From Escherichia coli (GTDB lineage Bacteria; Pseudomonadota; Gammaproteobacteria; Enterobacterales; Enterobacteriaceae), in assembly GCF_024700885.2 (NCBI RefSeq), contig NZ_CP117014.1: a DNA stretch of 64,000 nt. One strand, 5' to 3'. Below the pieces are notes generated by a model. The model did not search any database. It had not been told where the DNA came from and saw nothing but the letters and a program-made list of their open reading frames with translations. This document shows, piece after piece, positions 1,819 through 60,017 of this stretch. The position numbers and the translations under genes were made by a program. Position 1 is the first letter of the stretch. Each line of letters starts with the position of its first letter.

Positions 1819-2370
1819 TTAAAAAATGGTAGCCCCCGGAATAATGGCCCGGTTTGAGGACATTTTTTCCTCAATCTCCTGCACGCGGGCATATAGCGTG
1901 GCTTCATCGGGCAGATCGGAGTAGTCAAATTTCCCGTCGATGGACGCTCTACGCTGCCGGGCGACATTTCTTACATTGATAAGCGCCTCCAGATATTCCT
2001 CCAGCATTCCAATGATTGCAGGAGGCACTTGCCATTCATCCAGCTTTCTGTCGCGTAGATTAACCAGATACAGCATTCGAAAAGGCCAGCGTTCTGAACC
2101 TGTTAGCTCTAATTCAATAAATCCGGATAATTCATCCGAATAGACCAACAGGCCATTGTTGTCGGTAACATGAACCAGAGAGAGATAATCTTCTGGTAAT
2201 GGGATTGCAGTACCACCAGCTTTTTCAAGTTTTAACGTTTTCACTACCCCTGCCCTGTCCTGATACGTGGTCAGAGCTTTGATCAGGAAGGCTTTCAGCG
2301 TTTCTTCTTCACGCACAAGCAGTGGATTAAATCGTACTTTAACGCTTTCTAATAATTCGGTTGGTGTCAT
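1819..2370 (-). CDS. hypothetical virion protein
   Basis: 183-aa ORF in the same late operon. The gap to the downstream gene is 15 nt. Confidence 0.4.
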   Translation of the reverse strand: MTPTELLESVKVRFNPLLVREEETLKAFLIKALTTYQDRAGVVKTLKLEKAGGTAIPLPEDYLSLVHVTDNNGLLVYSDELSGFIELELTGSERWPFRMLYLVNLRDRKLDEWQVPPAIIGMLEEYLEALINVRNVARQRRASIDGKFDYSDLPDEATLYARVQEIEEKMSSNRAIIPGATIF

Positions 2371-2422
2371 CGTACCTACAACTCAAATACAAGGAGTTCC
2401 CGCCACAAGGGCGGGAAAGAGA

Positions 2423-2914
2423 TCACTCTACCCAGTTGTAAACAATACGCAGGGAAGGCTTAACGACTGCTGTTACGTCTTCGGTGGAGAAGTCCACTGC
2501 GTCGGAATACACTTTGCAGTGATAATATGTGCGGATCAGACCTTTATGGTTACCGCTATTGGATTCAGCCGCTGCCTGTAAGGTAATTTCCAGATATTCT
2601 TTGCCATATACCATTTGTTTTACGGCGGCCAGAACATCCCCTTCGATGGTTTCAGAGCAGGTAACCTGGAATTCACCTGAGTTACGCAATGGCCCGTGCT
2701 GGTTGATCTTCATGCCGCCAGGACCATAGTCTTCCACGTCTTCGCGAGTCATTTCCGGCAACTGAGTGGTACGAACAAGTACAGATAGTTTTTCGTAACC
2801 TTTAATAGTCATCCAGAATTCTGAACCAATAAGTTTTTCGCCCGCTGCCAGGTTTTTGTTCAACCGGGATTTCAGAAAAGCGATATCGGCTTTTGTATTT
2901 GCAAAACCGGACAT
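2423..2914 (-). CDS. putative tail tube protein
   Basis: 163-aa ORF downstream of the sheath gene. Size and position fit a contractile-tail tube, and the synteny resembles the P1 21/22/23 cluster next to rep. No diagnostic motif. Confidence 0.4.
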   Translation of the reverse strand: MSGFANTKADIAFLKSRLNKNLAAGEKLIGSEFWMTIKGYEKLSVLVRTTQLPEMTREDVEDYGPGGMKINQHGPLRNSGEFQVTCSETIEGDVLAAVKQMVYGKEYLEITLQAAAESNSGNHKGLIRTYYHCKVYSDAVDFSTEDVTAVVKPSLRIVYNWVE

Positions 2915-2922
2915 AAATACTC

Positions 2923-3513
2923 CTACACAAAAACAGATGATATGTTGCTACGGTTAATCGAGGTGTTTCCGCTGCATTGCAGGGTTACCGTGTTATGAGT
3001 GAAATAGCCTTCCGGTGTGCGTGGGGCGTCCAGTTGGTAACTCACGCTTTTGATAACAACGTCGGTAAGGGCTATGTTCCTACCTATGTTTAACGTTACT
3101 GTCTCCGGGCGACGACCGAATGGCGCTACATTGTTCAGTTCCGGCGATTCCATCTTCAGCAATGCTGTAATGGCTGCGTTTACTTCAAGTTGCGCGTTCG
3201 TTGTCGCCATGAAATCAATTACCAGATTAAATTCAGGCGGTTGCTGACCTTCCCAAACAAGCATTGAGTTGAAGAGGGTTTTTGTTGTTACGCCGGTTGC
3301 GGTCTGAAGCGTATCTGCAAGAGAGCCAGCCGCAGCGCTAATACCACCAAGCAAACCTCCTACTGACTGGTTTTCAAATGGTGATTGCCACATTGATGAC
3401 AGTTCTGCGGTAGATCCTTCACCGATATAACCGACGACCATATCCTCTGAAGAGAGGATATAAACCTTCATTAACGGACTTATTCCGTCAGGCATTATCG
3501 CGCCGCAAATCAA
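2923..3513 (-). CDS. hypothetical virion protein
   Basis: 196-aa ORF located between the acidic protein gene and the tube gene. Confidence 0.35.
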   Translation of the reverse strand: MICGAIMPDGISPLMKVYILSSEDMVVGYIGEGSTAELSSMWQSPFENQSVGGLLGGISAAAGSLADTLQTATGVTTKTLFNSMLVWEGQQPPEFNLVIDFMATTNAQLEVNAAITALLKMESPELNNVAPFGRRPETVTLNIGRNIALTDVVIKSVSYQLDAPRTPEGYFTHNTVTLQCSGNTSINRSNISSVFV

Positions 3514-3562: not shown

Positions 3563-4303
3563 TTACAAACCGCGTTTTTTGCGAATGCGCATTGATTTTT
3601 TGCGGTTGATATTCGCTACGGATGTATGTGCTTTGCGGCGTGCTTTTTTCAGCGCCTGTTTTTGCAATGACGTCATGCGGCGAGGACGCGGGCGTTTACG
3701 GATGATGGTTACCTTGCCATCACGAACCACTTTTTTACGTACCGCTTCCAGCATTGCGCTATCACCACCAGCAACGGTGTAAATGGCAATAGCTGTTTCC
3801 ATCATGTCGGTGTCGCTTTCGGAAAGAGCGTCATAAACACGTTCGGCAGCTGAGTCATCTTCATCGTCGATCATTTCGGTTACATCATCCTGATCAGCGC
3901 CAAGCGCAACAGCTGCATCAGCAAGAGCTGCGAGTGCATCGTTATAAGCATCGATTTGCTCATCGGTGAAATCGGTGTCTTCATCGATATCAGCCAGGCC
4001 AGCCATAGTGATTGCTAATGCATCAAATGAGTCAGCCTCCGGATCACCATCTTCAACCCAACCAGCAAGCATGGAAGCTGCCAGGCTGCGCATATCACCT
4101 TGTGCACGGGATTCAACCGCTTCCATCATCGCGGTTTCAATGTCGTCTTTGGGCTTTGGTTGAGTGTCCTTTCCTTTCTGTCCTGCGCTTTCCAGCATGG
4201 CGTTATCATTATTGTCCTGCGTGGATTTATCACCGCTTTCAAAGCAGCCAGAACCGAAAATCGCACGCATAAAAGGATCAGCAGTATAATTTTTCATATT
4301 CAA
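3563..4303 (-). CDS. hypothetical acidic protein with strongly basic C-terminal tail
   Basis: 246-aa ORF. The N-terminal two thirds are D/E-rich. The C terminus reads RKRPRPRRMTSLQKQALKKARRKAH..RKKSMRIRKKRGL. Confidence 0.35.
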   Translation of the reverse strand: MNMKNYTADPFMRAIFGSGCFESGDKSTQDNNDNAMLESAGQKGKDTQPKPKDDIETAMMEAVESRAQGDMRSLAASMLAGWVEDGDPEADSFDALAITMAGLADIDEDTDFTDEQIDAYNDALAALADAAVALGADQDDVTEMIDDEDDSAAERVYDALSESDTDMMETAIAIYTVAGGDSAMLEAVRKKVVRDGKVTIIRKRPRPRRMTSLQKQALKKARRKAHTSVANINRKKSMRIRKKRGL

Positions 4304-54858: not shown

Positions 54859-55251
54859 CTACCAGCTAGACAAACGAACAACATGTTTCACTTTTGCGAT
54901 CCACTGTCCGCGATAACTATTGATTACGGCCTGTGCCAGCTTCAAATTGGCTTCAAAATCAGCCTTACTACCATCAGACTCCACCAGCATTCCTCCATCT
55001 ATTTCTGGTAAACATAGATAATCCTGCTCAACCTGCAGCGGCATTGATGGCTCTCTGAATGGGGTTACTTGCTCTGCTTTCCAGCGAAATCTAACCCTTA
55101 TCCCCCTGGTGGTCATTACTAGATAGCCTGTTATAGTGCTTTTATGGCCCACATCAGTACGCGTGGCATTGCATGACTCGATCTTACAGTTAGCGATAGA
55201 CCACTCCATATTGGTGGCCTGTTGAGTGCTTAATTTGGTAGTCCCGTACAT
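54859..55251 (-). CDS. hypothetical protein
   Basis: 130-aa ORF. Confidence 0.4.
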   Translation of the reverse strand: MYGTTKLSTQQATNMEWSIANCKIESCNATRTDVGHKSTITGYLVMTTRGIRVRFRWKAEQVTPFREPSMPLQVEQDYLCLPEIDGGMLVESDGSKADFEANLKLAQAVINSYRGQWIAKVKHVVRLSSW

Positions 55252-55826
55252 CAGAAAGCCTCCCAGTCAGTCGCGATAATATCCACACCAGTTGCAAACC
55301 AGTCTGTCTGCGCCTGTAAATCCCCATTCATCATTACCAGGCGAGGCATCACCATCACATCGCACCCTTCCACAATATCGAATGCCTCTTCCGGCAAGAA
55401 TTCGAAGAGCTTTTCTTTGCTGCCAATACTGCCACGGAACATCGATATATAGCTCCCTTTGGGCCATGATGTCCGCCGGGCATCAAGCCCTTTCATCATC
55501 CAGTAAAAAGCCGAGGAAAAAGGGATATTCTTTTTGCCAATGATTACATTATTCGCTTCTGTGTATTTCAGGAACTTAACTAACCTTACCATTGACTCGG
55601 ATAACGCAACGTATGGCTCATGATTGATTGCTGACACGCTTACACCGTGCAATCCAACGCTTACCACTGTCATATCGCCGCTCTGTGCGGTTTCGATATT
55701 GACGCCTTTGCGAACTAATGAGGCGTAAATTTCCTCTCGCTTTTGGGTCCAGCGTTCACGCTTCCCTATGAAGTCACTCAAAATGAGATCTTCTTCTGTA
55801 TATGCGTTATCGTTCGCCATTAACAT
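55251..55826 (-). CDS. second DUF2829-like protein with N-terminal extension
   Basis: The C-terminal half (FSSAFYWMMKGLDARRTSWPKGSYISMF...MPRLVMMNGDLQAQTDWFATGVDIIATDWEAF) fits the same F..A...G...R.sW ... W....D..A.DW pattern. Confidence 0.45.
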   Translation of the reverse strand: MLMANDNAYTEEDLILSDFIGKRERWTQKREEIYASLVRKGVNIETAQSGDMTVVSVGLHGVSVSAINHEPYVALSESMVRLVKFLKYTEANNVIIGKKNIPFSSAFYWMMKGLDARRTSWPKGSYISMFRGSIGSKEKLFEFLPEEAFDIVEGCDVMVMPRLVMMNGDLQAQTDWFATGVDIIATDWEAF

Positions 55827-56048
55827 AACGTTTCCTTTTTTACACGCGCGACTATCCCCCGGAAGTACCGGTAGTGATGTCGTAACTTCGTATTAATTAA
55901 GGGGTACAGCCTGAGCGGCTATATGATGAATTGAAAGGAGTTGTGGCGGTGGTGCCTCCACCTGCCAGGTTAGCCACTCCTGGCGACGTCACTTATCAGA
56001 ACGTAGTGAATGAAAATGGCTTCGTCACGAGCGCATAGCCGCAATTAC

Positions 56049-56096
56049 CACAACGGAAACGGCGCTCACGCTAATTAAACGCCTTTTCCTGTTGTG
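56049..56096. repeat. box-hairpin element A
   Basis: CACAACGGAAACGGCG / CGCCTTTTCCTGTTGTG: 15 bp with one bulge and one mismatch, and a 15-nt loop. The left arm is preceded by GCAATTAC. Confidence 0.5.
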
Positions 56097-56280
56097 CGCC
56101 GTGCTCTTCCGGCTGTCACACCGAATCGCCAGGATGGTGAATCCGCAGTCCGACGCTATGAACGGGGCTTGCACATTCCGGCTACCTGGTGTGCCCATGC
56201 AGTGTTAGTAAAAGGTACCTAACAGCTACACCAGACCGCTAACGACGCATGTGCCATACGCCGTGTTACAACCAAATGTG

Positions 56281-56356
56281 GTGGCCCCTACCGGACTTGA
56301 ACCGGTGACCGTGCGATTATGAGTCGCCCGCTCTAACCACTGAGCTAAAGGGCCAG
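56281..56356 (-). tRNA. tRNA-Ile2 (anticodon CAU, lysidine type) or Met
   Basis: GGCCCTTTAGCTCAGTGGTTAGAGCGGGCGACTCATAATCGCACGGTCACCGGTTCAAGTCCGGTAGGGGCCACCA forms a cloverleaf. From memory it is close to E. coli ileX. CCA is encoded. Confidence 0.85.
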
Positions 56357-56785
56357 ATTACTGTTAATTACGCTTACGCTTTTTGCCAGAACCGCGTAAG
56401 GCTTTTGCCGCTTGCTCTACCCCGTATGCAACCACCAGCAGAAACAATAATGTCCACTCCGGGTTTTTATCGGCAAACGCCCAAAAATCCATCACTTGCA
56501 GCCACCTTTTAAGACAAAACGCCATTGCTGTTAGGTTGCGGTGCCGGGCGCCTCCCGGTGACGTTAACCAGTTAACAATTAACGCCGGATCACTTATGGA
56601 TTCTCGTTACGCCAGTAAAAAGACCACCTTTACTGTTTTAACTGTTCCGCGTGCGCTTAGCCGCATTCACCGCAATGGTAAGAGCATTTGGCTGACTGGG
56701 CGGCGATGACGCCTGTACGCATTTGGTGATCCGGTTCTGCTTCCGGCATTCGCTTAATTAGCCAAATACCCTTAATGTTGCACTG

Positions 56786-56872
56786 GCGGAGAGTAATGGA
56801 ATCGAACCATCATCGCTTGCGCAATGGGACGGTTTTCAAGACCGCTTGAGCACCATGCTCCCTACTCTCCCG
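56786..56872 (-). tRNA. tRNA-Ser (anticodon UGA), class II with atypical D arm
   Basis: Acceptor GGAGAGT/ACTCTCC, discriminator G and CCA. Anticodon stem-loop GCGGT-CTTGAAA-ACCGT. Long variable arm and T arm GATGG-TTCGATT-CCATT. The D arm (GAGC-ATGGT-GCTC) lacks the GG. Confidence 0.65.
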
Positions 56873-57002
56873 TTATTGTGGCGACCGGTGCTGATCTCCG
56901 GCTTGCGGTTATTTCAGACTCTCACGGGCGTTTAATTGCCCCGCCGAACAGCTCTTTTCCGCAATAGCTGCAATGTCTTTCGCGCATCAGCCTGCGCATT
57001 CA

Positions 57003-57102
57003 CCACAATGTTGAGAACACTGGTTGTCACGCTGCAACGCAACATTTATTCGTAGATTGGGATATGACCCCGTTACGCCAGTGTTCTCAACGTTGTAGTG
57101 CC
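57003..57102. repeat. box-hairpin element B
   Basis: CACCACAATGTTGAGAACACTGG / CCAGTGTTCTCAACGTTGTAGTG: 23 positions (21 Watson-Crick pairs, 1 GU, 1 mismatch) with a 54-nt loop. Confidence 0.55.
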
Positions 57103-57238
57103 GGTTACGGTTCCGGCCAGACCTCTTCCTCAACGGGGTGTTCTCCATACGGACTACCGTTTATTGGTCGTTCCTGCGGTTTATGTTGTGAAGCCAGATG
57201 CTTATCTTCTGGTTGCTTCAAAGAGCTGCACTTCATCA

Positions 57239-57325
57239 CAACGGTAAGAGCATTTATGGCTCGCATCGCGGGAAAAAGCCCACGGTAGAGAGTCGAACTC
57301 TACAAATGCTCTTACCTGTTGTGTT
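57239..57325. repeat. box-hairpin element C containing a T-arm-like hairpin; abuts the tRNA-Thr 3' end
   Basis: The outer stem is CACAACGGTAAGAGCATTT / AAATGCTCTTACCTGTTGTG (19 bp, 1 bulge). On the minus strand the inner region reads GTAGAG-TTCGACT-CTCTAC, then CGTGGG-CTTTTT-CCCGCG. Confidence 0.55.
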
Positions 57326-57326
57326 G

Positions 57327-57402
57327 GTGCCGGTTAACGGGATCGAACCGCTGACCATTCGCTTACAAAGCGACTGCTCTACCAACTGAGCTAAACCGGC
57401 AA
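57327..57402 (-). tRNA. tRNA-Thr (anticodon UGU)
   Basis: GCCGGTTTAGCTCAGTTGGTAGAGCAGTCGCTTTGTAAGCGAATGGTCAGCGGTTCGATCCCGTTAACCGGCACCA; the anticodon loop is TTTGTAA. Confidence 0.85.
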
Positions 57403-57406
57403 TTTG

Positions 57407-57493
57407 GTGGGGAGTGATGGAGTCGAACCACCCGAGTCGCAATGACAGTAGATTTACAGTCTACCCCGCTACCCCTACGGACTAACTCCCCTA
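57407..57493 (-). tRNA. tRNA-Tyr (anticodon GUA), class II
   Basis: GGGGAGT...GTAGA-CTGTAAA-TCTAC, a long variable arm, T arm GGTGG-TTCGACT-CCATC, acceptor 3' strand ACTCCCC, discriminator A and CCA. Confidence 0.8.
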
Positions 57494-57498
57494 AATTG

Positions 57499-57575
57499 GC
57501 GATGGTGGGTGGATTCGAACCACCTACCGAAAGCTTAGAAGGCTGCTGTTCTATCCTACTGAGCTACACCATCAC
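57499..57575 (-). tRNA. tRNA-Arg (anticodon UCU)
   Basis: Acceptor GATGGTG/CACCATC, discriminator G and CCA. The anticodon loop is CTTCTAA and the T arm GGTGG-TTCGAAT-CCACC. Both the anticodon stem and the D stem contain mismatches. Confidence 0.7.
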
Positions 57576-58036
57576 TTGCCGGGTACGTCTCCGGCGAGGG
57601 CTTCCACCTCCGTATGCTTTTCGGCGCACCGCGCCCTGGCTGCAATTCGGTAACAGGGGATGCACAACCCTGGCTTCCAGCGTGATTAGCGCCTTCAGCA
57701 TGACGGGATATACCCGTTACAAGAAGTTCTCCCAGGATGCCATTAAGCAATGGCTGTTACGCGGGAAGGACGCAACAGGTAAGGGCGCTGACCAGAAAGA
57801 CCTGACCCTTCTCATTCATCTGGTTAATCACACCAGCGCCCTTGCCTGTTATGCCTCCCCGTTCCCTAATACACAGACGGGGACACTCTGCGGTCGATTT
57901 TTTTGACGGGGGACGACTCATACCCCGTGGCGTCTGGCTTCTTAGGCCGCTACCATCATCAGATCATCGTTTGCATTTACTTTAATGGTCAGTTTCTAAA
58001 CCGCCGCAAAGTCGCTAACCATGACGAAAACCCTAA

Positions 58037-58158
58037 AAAAGCCCACCCGAAGATGGGCAAATACGCTACATCTCACACAAGAAAGAAGCCGACTGCCTGA
58101 GCTGGATTCACTTTCAAATGCCCGCTGAAAGGGATCACAAGTCGGCTTCTTTCTTGAT
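58037..58158 (-). ncRNA. candidate small-RNA 3' module: 17-bp hairpin plus rho-independent terminator
   Basis: On the minus strand, CAAGAAAGAAGCCGACT (58158-58142) pairs perfectly with 58096-58080 across a 45-nt loop. GCCCA-tcttcggg-TGGGC plus TTTTTT follows at 58060-58037. Confidence 0.35.
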
Positions 58159-58374
58159 GCGGCACTCTCTCCGCCCGTCACCGCTCTGTCTCGGTTGTCG
58201 CGTTTGCCACGCCAGCCGTAACGAGGTTTAAAGTCTTTACACGTTTCCATCACTCGACTGCCGTCTGTGGCTGTTCGTTGCAGCGGGGGTGCCTCCCCCT
58301 GGGGATATCCCCGGCCTTACCCCATTCTTTCAAGACACAATGCAAGGCCACATCCGCATAGGTGCATTACCGCA

Positions 58375-58439
58375 ACATTAAGGAGACTCAGGGCAAAAGG
58401 TAACCGCCACAAAAATCCCTATGCCTCCTTAATGTTGAA
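58375..58439. repeat. box-hairpin element E
   Basis: CAACATTAAGGAG / CTCCTTAATGTTG: a perfect 13-bp stem with a 39-nt loop. The left arm is preceded by GCATTACCG, as in the other boxes. Confidence 0.5.
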
Positions 58440-58667
58440 GATGTGCATTGATGATTAGATGCAGCATGTACCGTTACTCTCTGCCGGACCATCATCAATG
58501 AACACCTTAAAAAGACCTTCCGTGGCTCAACATGTATTGTCGTTTACTCCGCAAAGTGCTCTCTCTGAAACCACTTTCCGCACTAAACCTGCTGAACTTT
58601 GGCCTGCACGGTGCCAAAGCGTGCTCTTGCATTACTATACATTTCTAACACTTTAATTTGTTAAATG

Positions 58668-58741
58668 CTGGTGGGCGAACAATAACCAATAAGTGACTAT
58701 CAAGCCCAGCAAGCGAAACGTGGGTACCGCCCACCAGCAAG
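58668..58741. repeat. long hairpin
   Basis: TGCTGGTGGGCG / CGCCCACCAGCA: a perfect 12-bp stem with a 50-nt loop. Confidence 0.45.
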
Positions 58742-58808
58742 GAAAATTCTATGTTAAGTTATCTTCACAATCAATACATTCGAATTGTGATTTTAGATTT
58801 CTAACACA

Positions 58809-60017
58809 TTATTTCCCATAAAGATCTTCTACACCCCCATTCTTCTTATCCCATTCGTTCGCCCATACCCGGCAAGCGTCAATGATTTCCTGACGACGAT
58901 CTCCTTGCATGAACGGGATGCTTTCATGGAAACAGCTTGGAATGCAGGCCACACTGAATACAGTATCAAACTCCGTCTGCTTGATTGCCTCCAGCGTCTC
59001 CGGACGCATTTTTAATTCATCGATTGGCGCATCCTTAGAGTCCATAATCCGGCGATATAAGCGCGGAAAATCCGTCTCCAGATACGCCATAATTTTATCT
59101 GCGAGACATTCGTCTATGTCGGTATTCCAGTCCTTTTCGAAGCCCGGCAGGCGATAGTAAAGCGGCGTTCCCCATACCGATGGGATCACATCCATCGTTA
59201 ACAGGCGATTGGTTCTGATTTGTTGATGGTAATTAGCCGTCAGCAGTGCTTCGCCACGCTGCCCAGTTTCCGCAACCAGGCCGTGCGGATACTCATGGAT
59301 GTAGGCAATGGCATCCCTTCCATCATACATAAGTGGAAATGTCTCTGGTCTTTGTCCCATGCCACAAGCACGGTTCAGATCGTGACCAAGCTGTGAGCAC
59401 TCTCGCTTTAATGTTTCGATAATGCTCTGCGCTGTAGCCAACTTTTTACGCAGTGTGACGCCTTCGCCTTGATAATCAATGCATTGCTGATTGAGCTTGG
59501 TTAAACGCTCTTTTAGTTCCCGGCGCTCTCTTTTCAGCGTGCGGTTATCCTTCTCCGCAACATCCAGCCGCTTTGTCAGGCTTGGCGGATAGTCTTTTTT
59601 GTAACGGTTCAAATCGGCTTCGGCAGATTTACGCAGTGTATTTGCCTGTTCAAGACGCGCTTCCAGATTGCCGATCTCATTACGCATATTCGCGGCAAAT
59701 TGATTAACTGCATCACCCAGGCTTTCAACTGTCGCTGATACGCCTGTGACTTGTGAAAAACGGATCAAGCCATCATTAACTGCTTGTTGGTATTCCTCAA
59801 ACTGATCCACCAGCTTATTGTAATCAACTGCCCCATCATCAAGCAGCTTGTTGATTTCCGCCACCAGGTTATCTGTAGTGGCAATGACACTCTCGTGCAG
59901 TCGCTTTGACAGGTCATCACCCGGATTCCGTTTCTGTATAAGAGCGATTTGTGTGCGCAGCGTTTCAATTGCTGTCGAGATAATTTCCAGATTAGAAGTA
60001 TCAGTGTGTTGACTCAT
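58809..60017 (-). CDS. hypothetical protein, N-terminal coiled coil
   Basis: 402-aa ORF. Operator-like boxes lie on both sides (58791-58809 and 60041-60056). Confidence 0.45.
   Translation of the reverse strand: MSQHTDTSNLEIISTAIETLRTQIALIQKRNPGDDLSKRLHESVIATTDNLVAEINKLLDDGAVDYNKLVDQFEEYQQAVNDGLIRFSQVTGVSATVESLGDAVNQFAANMRNEIGNLEARLEQANTLRKSAEADLNRYKKDYPPSLTKRLDVAEKDNRTLKRERRELKERLTKLNQQCIDYQGEGVTLRKKLATAQSIIETLKRECSQLGHDLNRACGMGQRPETFPLMYDGRDAIAYIHEYPHGLVAETGQRGEALLTANYHQQIRTNRLLTMDVIPSVWGTPLYYRLPGFEKDWNTDIDECLADKIMAYLETDFPRLYRRIMDSKDAPIDELKMRPETLEAIKQTEFDTVFSVACIPSCFHESIPFMQGDRRQEIIDACRVWANEWDKKNGGVEDLYGK

Follow-up and report, generated by a model that had tools for sequence, protein, structure and literature searches.

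We analysed a 64,000-nucleotide (nt) stretch of Escherichia coli DNA (contig NZ_CP117014.1; hereafter the window), in which a Tad2-like gene (55251-55826) and a PmgS-like gene (58809-60017), both on the minus strand, flank the segment 55830-58808. The segment carries an array of five transfer RNA (tRNA) genes, five paralogous RNA modules of the STnc100/PasD superfamily, here named U1 to U5, and one RNA composed of a hairpin plus a terminator. ARAGORN found exactly the five minus-strand tRNAs that an earlier note on this DNA had mentioned, and no others in the window; Rfam concurs. The segment is 99.7% identical to E. coli plasmids and 94% identical to the phage-plasmid D6 across 90% of the segment length, and it shares several homologous blocks with phages P1 and P7 at 84-89% identity. 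The features are collected in Table 1.

The earlier note had described a box of about 25 nt recurring five times in the same orientation. All five copies are real and homologous, as established by a repeat search and a covariance model, whereas the start coordinates given for three of them were 2 nt off. The degenerate 14-mer GCAWTYACCRCAAY has three exact matches (56041, 56663 and 56996), all in the segment and on one strand, compared with 0.01 in shuffled sequences. With two mismatches allowed, the bare 14-mer is not significant (9 matches vs 6.7 expected) and, therefore, the case for five copies rests on the covariance model. The repeat search returned a four-copy family of 25 nt at 56040, 56662, 56995 and 57228; the copies at 57228 and 58366 are degenerate, and their homology was confirmed by the covariance model. 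This model, R1, was trained exclusively on U1-type sequences from nine phages (U1 of the window, D6, P1, P7 and five lambdoid phages; MAFFT alignment A2), and was searched with filters off against both strands of the whole window. Its top five matches are the five box positions, U1 to U5, all on the minus strand, and the next match has an E-value of 0.39. A broader model, R2, built from P1/D6 and lambdoid early-operon modules, found no module beyond these five on either strand of the whole window, and none after the hairpin HE.

The box is the 5' strand of a closing helix (helix P1), a GAAU junction and a small hairpin (P2) of a multi-helix RNA module of 65-150 nt. Each module consists, in order, of helix P1 (GUUGYGG/CCRCAAC, 7-9 bp), the GAAU junction, the small P2 hairpin, a hypervariable middle, a penultimate hairpin, and a terminal hairpin of 4-5 bp that is stacked directly on the 3' strand of helix P1. 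The earlier note had paired the 3' part of the box with a complement close by; the nearby complement is not the main partner, and GUUGYGG of the box mainly pairs with CCRCAAC 60-140 nt downstream, thereby closing a four- or five-way junction. On the transcribed strand, the Rfam alignment pairs the U1 box UUGCGGUG-AAU-GCGGCU... with CACCGCAA ~130 nt downstream. By eye and by folding, a distal partner is present for all five boxes, and a hairpin of 4-5 bp directly precedes it. The loop of the terminal hairpin is AGGCR in U1-U3 and AGAUNAGCA in U4 and U5. U5 is a mini-module of ~65 nt that consists only of the closing helix GUUGUGA/UCACAAC and a terminal hairpin with a AGAUAAGCA loop; of the 22 relatives searched, 16, among them P1, P7 and D6, have an identical or almost identical copy.

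P1/D6-type phage-plasmids carry three to six modules each; phage P1 has three, which are unannotated. Among the relatives, modules with at least three different types of middle abut tRNA-Ser. Two orphan P5-like hairpins within the segment (Table 1) look, from their sequences, like the 3' ends of lost modules that are nested in hairpins. On the opposite strand, at 56135-56156 (+) between the CAU tRNA and hairpin H2, TGGTGAATCCGCAGTCCGACGC resembles the 5' half of U4 (18 of 22 nt) and has no 3' partner. This half-box was not detected by R2 and is an incomplete module.

Table 1. Features of the segment 55830-58808 by position in the window; R1 scores are from the covariance-model search described in the text
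Feature	Position	Strand	Remarks
Module U1	56529-56682	-	R1 134 bits, E 1.3e-34; copy closest to Rfam STnc100
Module U2	55934-56060	-	R1 55.9 bits, E 2e-13; in every D6-like relative; ~110 nt upstream of Tad2-like gene
Module U3	58271-58382	-	R1 43.9 bits, E 4e-10; outside R1 training; orthologues in all D6-like relatives
Module U4	56869-57015	-	R1 22.9 bits, E 2e-4; closing helix ends 4 nt before first base of tRNA-Ser
Module U5	57179-57248	-	R1 16.9 bits, E 0.008 (marginal)
Hairpin H1 (earlier element B; I2)	56672-56781	-	31 nt, 71% complementary; precedes U1; starts 2 nt past CCA of tRNA-Ser
Hairpin H2 (earlier element A)	56050-56096	-	16-17 bp, bulged A; precedes U2
Hairpin H3 (earlier element E; I5)	58373-58437	-	21 nt, 86% complementary, 21-bp stem; 3' arm runs into closing helix of U3
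Hairpin H4 (I4)	57001-57100	-	23 nt, 91% complementary; 23-bp stem, 54-nt loop; precedes U4
Hairpin H5 (earlier element C; I17)	57237-57323	-	13 nt perfect, extendable to ~19; 19-20 bp, bulged A; precedes U5; starts 1 nt past CCA of tRNA-Thr
Hairpin HE (I10)	57770-57853	-	17 nt, 94%; 17-19 bp; same arm family; no module follows; absent from earlier note
17-bp perfect hairpin (I8)	58078-58156	-	Upstream of terminator; three compensatory pair changes in relative L018
Leader hairpin, 12 bp	58668-58741	-	Pair 17/70 CG -> GC in relatives
Leader hairpin (I7)	58435..58511	-	21 nt, 86% complementary; inverted-repeat search
Orphan 3' half-module	57092..57117	-	P5-like hairpin CCGG-AACCGUAA-CCGG, then CACUACAAC; doubles as 5' base of H4; repeat search
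Orphan P5-like hairpin	56731-56747	-	CCGG-AAGCAGAA-CCGG; within loop of H1; repeat search
tRNA with CAU anticodon (Met/CAT call)	56279-56354	-	ARAGORN; P1 homologue annotated tRNA-Ile2 (ileX-like)
tRNA-Ser (UGA)	56784-56870	-	ARAGORN, Rfam
tRNA-Thr (UGU)	57325-57400	-	ARAGORN, Rfam
tRNA-Tyr (GUA)	57405-57491	-	ARAGORN, Rfam
tRNA-Arg (UCU)	57497-57573	-	ARAGORN, Rfam
Sigma-70-like promoter TTGATT-17-TAGAAT	58746..58774	-	Sole such promoter in segment; flanked by two operator-like motifs; Pban/Op72 at equivalent position in P1/P7
Operator-like motif ATTTCTAACAC	58797..58807; second copy 58641-58651	+	Flanks promoter
Intrinsic terminator GCCCAUCUUCGGGUGGGC, then U6	58035..58058 (hairpin 58041-58058)	-	Common to 'dicF-like region' of P1
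TciC-like open reading frame, 43 amino acids	56364-56495	-	Membrane-type peptide; 39% identity to P1 TciC over 33 amino acids; phrog_23152 match

The earlier note could name no element class for these repeats; the box is the conserved 5' end of a module of the STnc100 type (Rfam RF02076). RF02076 matched 56537-56674 (-), i.e. U1, with 39.1 bits and an E-value of 2.5e-6, short of the gathering score of 47, and the same helices are seen in the alignment. The copies in D6, P1 and lambdoid early operons are also sub-threshold at 33-40 bits, and no copy in the window reaches Rfam's threshold for RF02076. In the reverse test, R2 detected Rfam-validated STnc100 genes, which score 76-132 bits with RF02076, at 43-63 bits. 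Thus, the window modules and STnc100 form one superfamily. The STnc100 core structure was found in U1 by the Rfam alignment and in U2-U4 by R1; U5 keeps only helix P1 and the terminal hairpin.

The modules share with STnc100 the closing helix, the GAAU junction, the small P2, the long penultimate hairpin and a 5-bp terminal hairpin with an AGGCA loop that abuts the closing helix. They also share with it a location in phages, often downstream of tRNA genes on the same strand, an unknown function and the occurrence in tandem arrays, as in the lambdoid IMG/VR contig L041, where four copies follow two tRNAs. In L041, the four tandem canonical STnc100 copies are at 2265-3380 (-), downstream of the two tRNAs (4009-4160, -); promoter-like AU-rich spacers lie between the copies, and terminators follow copies 3 and 4. 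By contrast, the window copies are below the gathering threshold (U1) or undetectable by RF02076 (U2-U5), they are separated by hairpins of 13-23 bp and tRNAs rather than by AU-rich spacers, and they reside in the early operon of a P1/D6-type phage-plasmid rather than in a lambdoid late or early-left operon. Moreover, four of the five lack a promoter-like spacer and a terminator of their own: only U3 sits in a promoter-to-terminator unit (58774 to 58041), with the terminator ~210 nt away, and neither of the two accompanies U1, U2, U4 or U5.

STnc100 is among the most abundant annotated families of enterobacterial small RNAs (sRNAs), and no function is listed for it in a review table (PMC9029176). 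In enterohaemorrhagic E. coli, STnc100 copies are abundant, with ~11 expressed, one of which was confirmed by Northern blot (PMC5331693), and an STnc100 copy is located downstream of stx2 (PMC12370729). PasD is an Hfq-associated, STnc100-related RNA, for which association with Hfq and target mRNAs has been reported by RIL-seq (ligation and sequencing of interacting RNAs), as cited in bioRxiv 10.64898/2026.05.13.724894.

U1 also has a close counterpart in the DicF-dicB/kil intergenic element of Qin/Rac-type lambdoid prophages, which has ~78% identity to U1 with compensatory differences. Of 5426 complete E. coli genomes, 4028 (~74%) carry it; there, the module is unannotated and only dicB is annotated under the match. 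This element differs from the array in being a single copy with a closing helix of 13-20 bp that is followed by a protein gene; moreover, it lacks a separate upstream H hairpin and has the DicF terminator there instead. In mEp460 (L003 2428-2660), the interval from the DicF terminator to the Shine-Dalgarno sequence of dicB is taken up by a U1-type module, whose closing helix is 20 bp long.

The helices are conserved as pairs. In alignment A2, which contains the nine U1-type sequences, 9 of 33 pairs are compensatory. R1 found 105 modules in 36 related loci, corresponding to 50 distinct sequences; in these, 97.4% of cells are standard-paired and both sides have changed at 21 of 33 pairs, counts that are inflated because their alignment (A3) was fitted to the model. 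Controls with slid partners gave 2-8 double-changed pairs and 31-42% pairing, and none of 500 shuffles reached the observed values. Independent of the model fit are the compensation in A2, the variants among orthologues and the compensatory changes at the U4 position. Within orthologue groups, 18 variants keep a pair and 2 break one, and variation concentrates in unpaired columns. At the U4 position, the variant in phage P1 has changed GUGGUGA/UCGCCAC to GUGAUGA/UCAUCAC, a compensatory change in the closing helix.

The structures also have a strand. In 22 relatives, 99 of 99 module matches are on the operon strand. Moreover, the segment overall folds to -501 kcal/mol on the minus strand vs -462 kcal/mol on the plus strand, and far more G-U than A-C oppositions are seen on the transcribed strand. 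In total, we conclude that the elements are RNA-level structures on the tRNA strand, and we are highly confident that U1-U5 are structured RNAs of the STnc100 superfamily. The proposal of the earlier note that these are structured RNAs with compensatory changes in their arms is borne out by the covariation of the modules, the H5 variants and the H paralogues.

The stems on which the earlier note had focused are all present. They form separate hairpins of 13-23 bp (H) just 5' of each module, and overlap the closing helix by 4-9 nt. Counting hairpins that have arms of ≥13 nt with no more than one mismatch and a loop of 3-70 nt, we found six in this 3 kb and 10 in the other 61 kb of the window, and dinucleotide shuffles of the segment contain a mean of 0.065 such hairpins; the density is thus ~12-fold that in the rest of the window and ~90-fold that in the shuffles. 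The H arms are homologous (CAAC-AGGUAAGRGC..., CAAC-AUUAAGGAG..., CAAC-GUUGAGAAC...) and differ among the copies, each of which has kept its own complement. The orthologues of H5 fall into three loop variants, among which the arms covary (A-U to G-C and C-G to U-A). For H stems in general, the relatives are mostly too similar to reveal covariation among orthologues, and the useful signal comes from the H5 variants together with the paralogues. GUUG(Y)G at the end of the 3' arm of each H doubles as the 5' strand of the closing helix, giving the layout CRCAAC ... GUUGYG ... CCRCAAC. As noted earlier for this DNA, hairpins abut tRNAs, and their bases lie 1-2 nt after the CCA of tRNA-Thr and tRNA-Ser. 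The T-arm mimic GTAGAG-TTCGACT-CTCTAC that had been reported is also present, at 57283-57301 (-) in the loop of H5. T-arm-like hairpins occur in the H5 loops of the window (GUAGAG-UUCGACU-CUCUAC) and of D6/P1 (AGGG-UUCGAAU-CCCU), which are non-homologous variants, and are absent from the P7-type variant; they may be tRNA debris.

The homologous DNA of P1 and P7 forms the ban-operon leader, in which the C1-controlled Pban/Op72 is followed by a "dicF-like region", tRNA-Asn and tRNA-Thr, tciA, tciB and tciC, tRNA-Ile(CAU) and ban. The terminator, tRNAs, modules, tciC and tRNA(CAU) follow one another in the window as they do there, and the annotators of P7 already place the tRNAs under control of the ban operator. 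By contrast, the D6-like operon continues into the Tad2-like gene, orf5, lpa and pacA and not into ban, its tRNA set is another one, and tciA and tciB, which are present in D6 and P1, are missing from the window. From these comparisons, 55830-58808 is probably the mostly non-coding leader of an early, minus-strand operon that is the counterpart of the ban-operon leader and is probably under repressor control. We infer transcription of the whole segment on the minus strand because of this homology and the orientation of the elements. The only sigma-70-like promoter (Table 1) would probably be the start of this RNA operon. The motif (A/T)TTTCTAACAC(A) occurs seven times in the window vs 1.3 expected (8324, 18809, 32821, 48985, 58641, 58797 and 61089), with some copies arranged as inverted pairs, and motifs of the ATTTCTAACAC type are probably operators of a D6-type repressor; the operator consensus of P1 C1 is absent from the window.

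The 17-bp hairpin, the minus-strand terminator and the 12-bp hairpin described in the earlier note were found at 58078-58156, 58041-58058 and 58668-58741, respectively. The terminator GCCCAUCUUCGGGUGGGC-U6 (58035-58058, -) resembles those after canonical STnc100 copies, GCCCCUCUUCGGAGGGGC-U6 (L041 2262-2730), from which it differs at one compensated pair. U3, the 17-bp hairpin and the terminator could be one extended STnc100-type gene, or the terminators could have converged on a UUCG type, and the likeness is suggestive only. The RNA at 58037-58158 was also considered as DicF and rejected: RF00039 has no match in the window at an E-value of 10, and the region does not align to real DicF. The genuine DicF in mEp460 scores 76.7 bits, and the 'dicF-like region' of P1 shares only the terminator with the window. 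Matches to tmRNA-like (transfer-messenger RNA-like) models at 57889-58047 reached 15-24 bits against thresholds of 47-50 and compress models of 213-355 nt into 106-152 nt, and were dismissed as noise. Similarly, weak Rfam matches to microRNAs and Plastid-ycf2 fall on generic hairpins or the antisense strand of a tRNA. A search of the literature on RNAs of the P1 ban operon and on 'dicF-like' found nothing relevant.

Among close relatives (loci L001-L032), the slot upstream of tRNA-Thr is occupied by Asn, Arg, Arg-Tyr or Asn-Tyr tRNAs, and tRNA-Ser is present or absent. The targets of colicin E5 include Asn and Tyr tRNAs, those of colicin D are Arg tRNAs, and the gene name tci refers to tellurite or colicin resistance. 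Just downstream of the array, the gene at 55251-55826 (-) corresponds to D6 orf6 (phrog_7362) and has a Pfam Tad2-like (Thoeris anti-defence 2) domain (E 9.5e-10) and, therefore, the array may lead into an anti-defence gene.

In agreement with the earlier note, the segment is nearly free of open reading frames (ORFs); the note had overlooked one small TciC-like gene, 56364-56495 (-), which has the Shine-Dalgarno sequence AAGGUGG 9 nt upstream and is annotated by PGAP (the Prokaryotic Genome Annotation Pipeline) in the 99.7%-identical plasmid. It is hardly tenable that the segment otherwise codes for protein, be it through homologues of P1 upl and plp, through the ORF at 57682-57906 (+), or through micro-ORFs that start at AUGs in the boxes. 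In P1, upl and plp are annotated on the opposite strand of the homologous DNA (plp is homologous at the DNA level to 56982-57355); however, neither is intact in the window, and in P1 they overlap modules and tRNA-Thr. Specifically, upl and plp (L002 3660-4229, +) are antisense to two STnc100-type modules (3777-3890 and 4054-4123, both -), and plp overlaps tRNA-Thr as well. For 57682-57906 (+), which overlaps HE, PGAP calls a 74-amino-acid hypothetical protein (WP_000622155.1) in near-identical plasmids; however, this ORF has no coding signature, in that substitutions are not concentrated at codon position 3, and stops and frameshifts break it in P1/P7. Pfam gave no match for any of four candidate ORFs of the segment, the 74-amino-acid ORF among them. 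The AUG within each box (GAAUGC) does open 16-43 codons, but these ORFs vary among the copies in frame, length and sequence and are not conserved, and the sole Shine-Dalgarno-like GGUGA directly adjoins the AUG. Protein coding by the 74-amino-acid ORF, the box micro-ORFs or the four candidates was therefore rejected on the basis of Pfam, the codon-position test and the lack of conservation. To judge from the sequences, upl and plp of P1 are probably not real genes and, like the ORF called by PGAP, are probably mis-annotations over RNA genes.

The earlier note had considered tRNA-like decoys; a role of the elements as tRNA mimics or decoys for tRNA-directed enzymes or defence nucleases is, in our view, very unlikely. 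The closing helix stacks on the terminal 5-bp hairpin with the geometry of an acceptor/T-arm minihelix, hairpins with UUCGANU loops recur in two H5 loop variants, and the elements sit among tRNAs and beside the Tad2-like anti-defence gene. However, neither ARAGORN nor the Rfam tRNA models match the modules, the terminal loop is the 5-nt AGGCA and not a T-loop, and an anticodon arm, a D-loop GG and a CCA end are lacking. In addition, the H5 variant of P1/D6 scores only 14.6 bits with tRNA-Sec and 14.9 bits with mascRNA (E ~1), and H5 of the window has no match to the tRNA clan. The array might also be a set of decaying duplications, relics of repeated insertion of an STnc100-type cassette of which only U1, or U1-U3, is still active. 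This would fit the steep fall of the R1 scores from U1 to U5, the truncation of U5, the orphan halves and the plus-strand half-box at 56135-56156, the absence of a module after HE, and the apparent tRNA and terminator debris in the H5 loop. Such decay is nevertheless unlikely given that U2, U3 and U4 (or a variant at the same position) recur across D6-like relatives with their pairing kept, that U5 is near-invariant, that the U4-position variants (P1) have compensatory changes, and that variation is lower in paired than in unpaired columns, the pair being almost always retained.

Equally improbable is a purely DNA-level explanation, according to which the CRCAAC...GTTGYG hairpins and the module ends are recombination boundaries at which P1-like and lambdoid phages swap tRNAs and ORFs, with RNA structure being incidental. 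The content between the elements does vary among close relatives (tRNAs and ORFs, including Ser, tciA/B or an SPFH gene), conserved module ends enclose unrelated middles, and conserved arms enclose the three unrelated H5 loop variants; moreover, hairpins contain nested orphan half-modules (at 57092-57117 and, in the loop of H1, at 56731-56747), and U1 is ~78% identical to lambdoid copies. Recombination alone, however, does not explain the compensatory double changes in helices, the excess of G-U over A-C or the single orientation of all 99 copies. Also, the termini CRCAAC...GTTGYG do not match the integron attC core RYYYAAC/GTTRRRY, with which they share only AAC/GTT, and no dedicated recombinase was identified, no specific search for one, including an integron integrase, having been made. 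This boundary function may coexist with an RNA function. Less improbable, though rather doubtful, is an action exclusively in cis, in which modules and H hairpins punctuate the operon, direct cuts by RNase III, RNase E or RNase P, and serve as structural caps, 5' or 3', that stabilise neighbouring tRNAs or mRNAs (tciC and the Tad2-like gene here; dicB, kil and terB in relatives), the excised RNA having no function in trans. U1-type modules always lie directly upstream of small genes (dicB, kil, terB/tciA), a module lies directly upstream of tRNA-Ser, hairpins abut tRNA 3' ends, and in mEp460, with the DicF terminator on one side and the Shine-Dalgarno sequence of dicB on the other, the closing helix reaches 20 bp. 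In addition, four of the five modules lack their own terminator, and no target complementarity was found. On the other hand, canonical STnc100 copies look free-standing, with AU-rich upstream spacers and own terminators, and their RNAs accumulate as discrete species (PMC5331693); the conserved four- or five-way junction with its conserved loops (GAAU and AGGCA) is not required for a simple cap; and U3 and U5 have no downstream gene to protect.

We marginally favour the combined reading that the modules are of the STnc100 type and are excised from a polycistronic precursor. By itself, co-transcription of the array followed by excision by nucleases appears about as probable as its opposite. In this scheme, the array would be transcribed as long precursors from the promoter at 58774. 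RNase P would cut at the 5' ends of the tRNAs, U4 ending 4 nt before tRNA-Ser; RNase E and exonucleases would act at the tRNA 3' ends; and RNase III would cut the long H stems, of which H5 and H1 begin 1-2 nt after tRNA CCA ends. Cutting would free compact modules as well as the GUUGYG strand contested by H and helix P1, upon which helix P1 would close. The released modules would persist as stable sRNAs, like the chromosomal STnc100 and PasD copies, and the hypervariable arm would most plausibly carry specificity. Stable non-tRNA RNAs that are co-transcribed with tRNAs include 3'ETS-leuZ of E. coli, an sRNA cut out of a tRNA precursor, and, in the tRNA cluster of phage T4, the 'species 1 and 2' RNAs (rnaC and rnaD). 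The tRNA-processing machinery releases these RNAs, those of T4 have no known function, and the analogy is functional and a lead only. Early phage transcripts also contain RNase III hairpins, which in the T7 early region and the lambda N leader are long, near-perfect intercistronic stems of ~20 bp; in this early phage operon, H4 (23 bp), H3 (21 bp) and H5 (19-20 bp) resemble them in length, and the remaining stems measure 17-19 bp (HE), 17-20 bp (58078-58156) and 16-17 bp (H2). RNase III accommodates ~22 bp of double-stranded RNA (PMC6212723), and the dicBF transcript, which carries a U1-type module, is processed by RNase III as well as by RNase E (bioRxiv 10.1101/2023.04.14.536235).

Several observations weigh against this reading. 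Processing and any trans-acting role rest on inference for this element. The strong terminator at 58041-58058 separates the sole sigma-70-like promoter from the tRNAs, so that read-through or an undetected internal promoter is required. With 16-19 bp, several of the H stems fall short of the ~22 bp that RNase III prefers. When H+U composites are folded to their minimum free energy, helix P1 loses out to the full H hairpin in four of five, which implies that helix P1 may form only once H is cut or opened. As to identity, U2-U5 have no RF02076 match even at an E-value of 10 in a search of the 3 kb, the independent model gives U5 no more than marginal significance (E 0.008), and the pairing counts from A3 are inflated as described above. 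The 3' terminator and U-tail typical of Hfq-dependent sRNAs are lacking in four of the five modules, though present after canonical STnc100 copies. Finally, the longest complementarity of the modules or the terminator RNA to the other 61 kb is 11-13 nt, which is near chance (host targets were not searched).

The earlier note had suggested small regulatory RNAs and processing signals, and these remain the two best functional readings. A regulatory role of the modules in trans is proposed only tentatively. Family members accumulate, and PasD binds Hfq and targets; against such a role, terminators, a conserved seed and complementarity of more than 13 nt in the window are missing, and the single-stranded middle is the least conserved part of the module. 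More speculative is the idea that the H+U units are a processing-coupled RNA switch, in which GUUGYG would pair either with the upstream CRCAAC (H) or with the downstream CCRCAAC (helix P1), and cutting of H by a nuclease where it borders tRNAs would trigger refolding into the closed STnc100 scaffold. We regard this switch, taken jointly with its extensions, as unlikely; the extensions are that the constant scaffold would display the hypervariable arm, that the arrays, beside variable tRNAs and an anti-defence gene, would be an RNA-based island for host takeover or counter-defence, and that the module ends would be points of cassette exchange between P1-like and lambdoid phages.

Compared with the literature searched, three aspects appear to be new: the extension of STnc100 to diverged paralogues in P1/D6-type phage-plasmids; the integration of the modules into a tRNA operon by means of long hairpins, which replace promoters and terminators of their own; and the competing pairing of H and helix P1. 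The locus is an extension of the known STnc100 family in a new arrangement and not a new RNA class, and tandem arrays near tRNAs are not unique to the window, as seen in L041. The STnc100 family is, however, much larger than the Rfam threshold reveals, and includes the unannotated dicF-dicB element as well as the P1/D6-type copies. At its core is a multi-helix scaffold, constant and supported by covariation, with a middle that is hypervariable. The locus matters mainly because STnc100 is abundant yet has no known function, and the phage-plasmid array is a compact system in which the maturation and the role of STnc100 RNAs can be tested.

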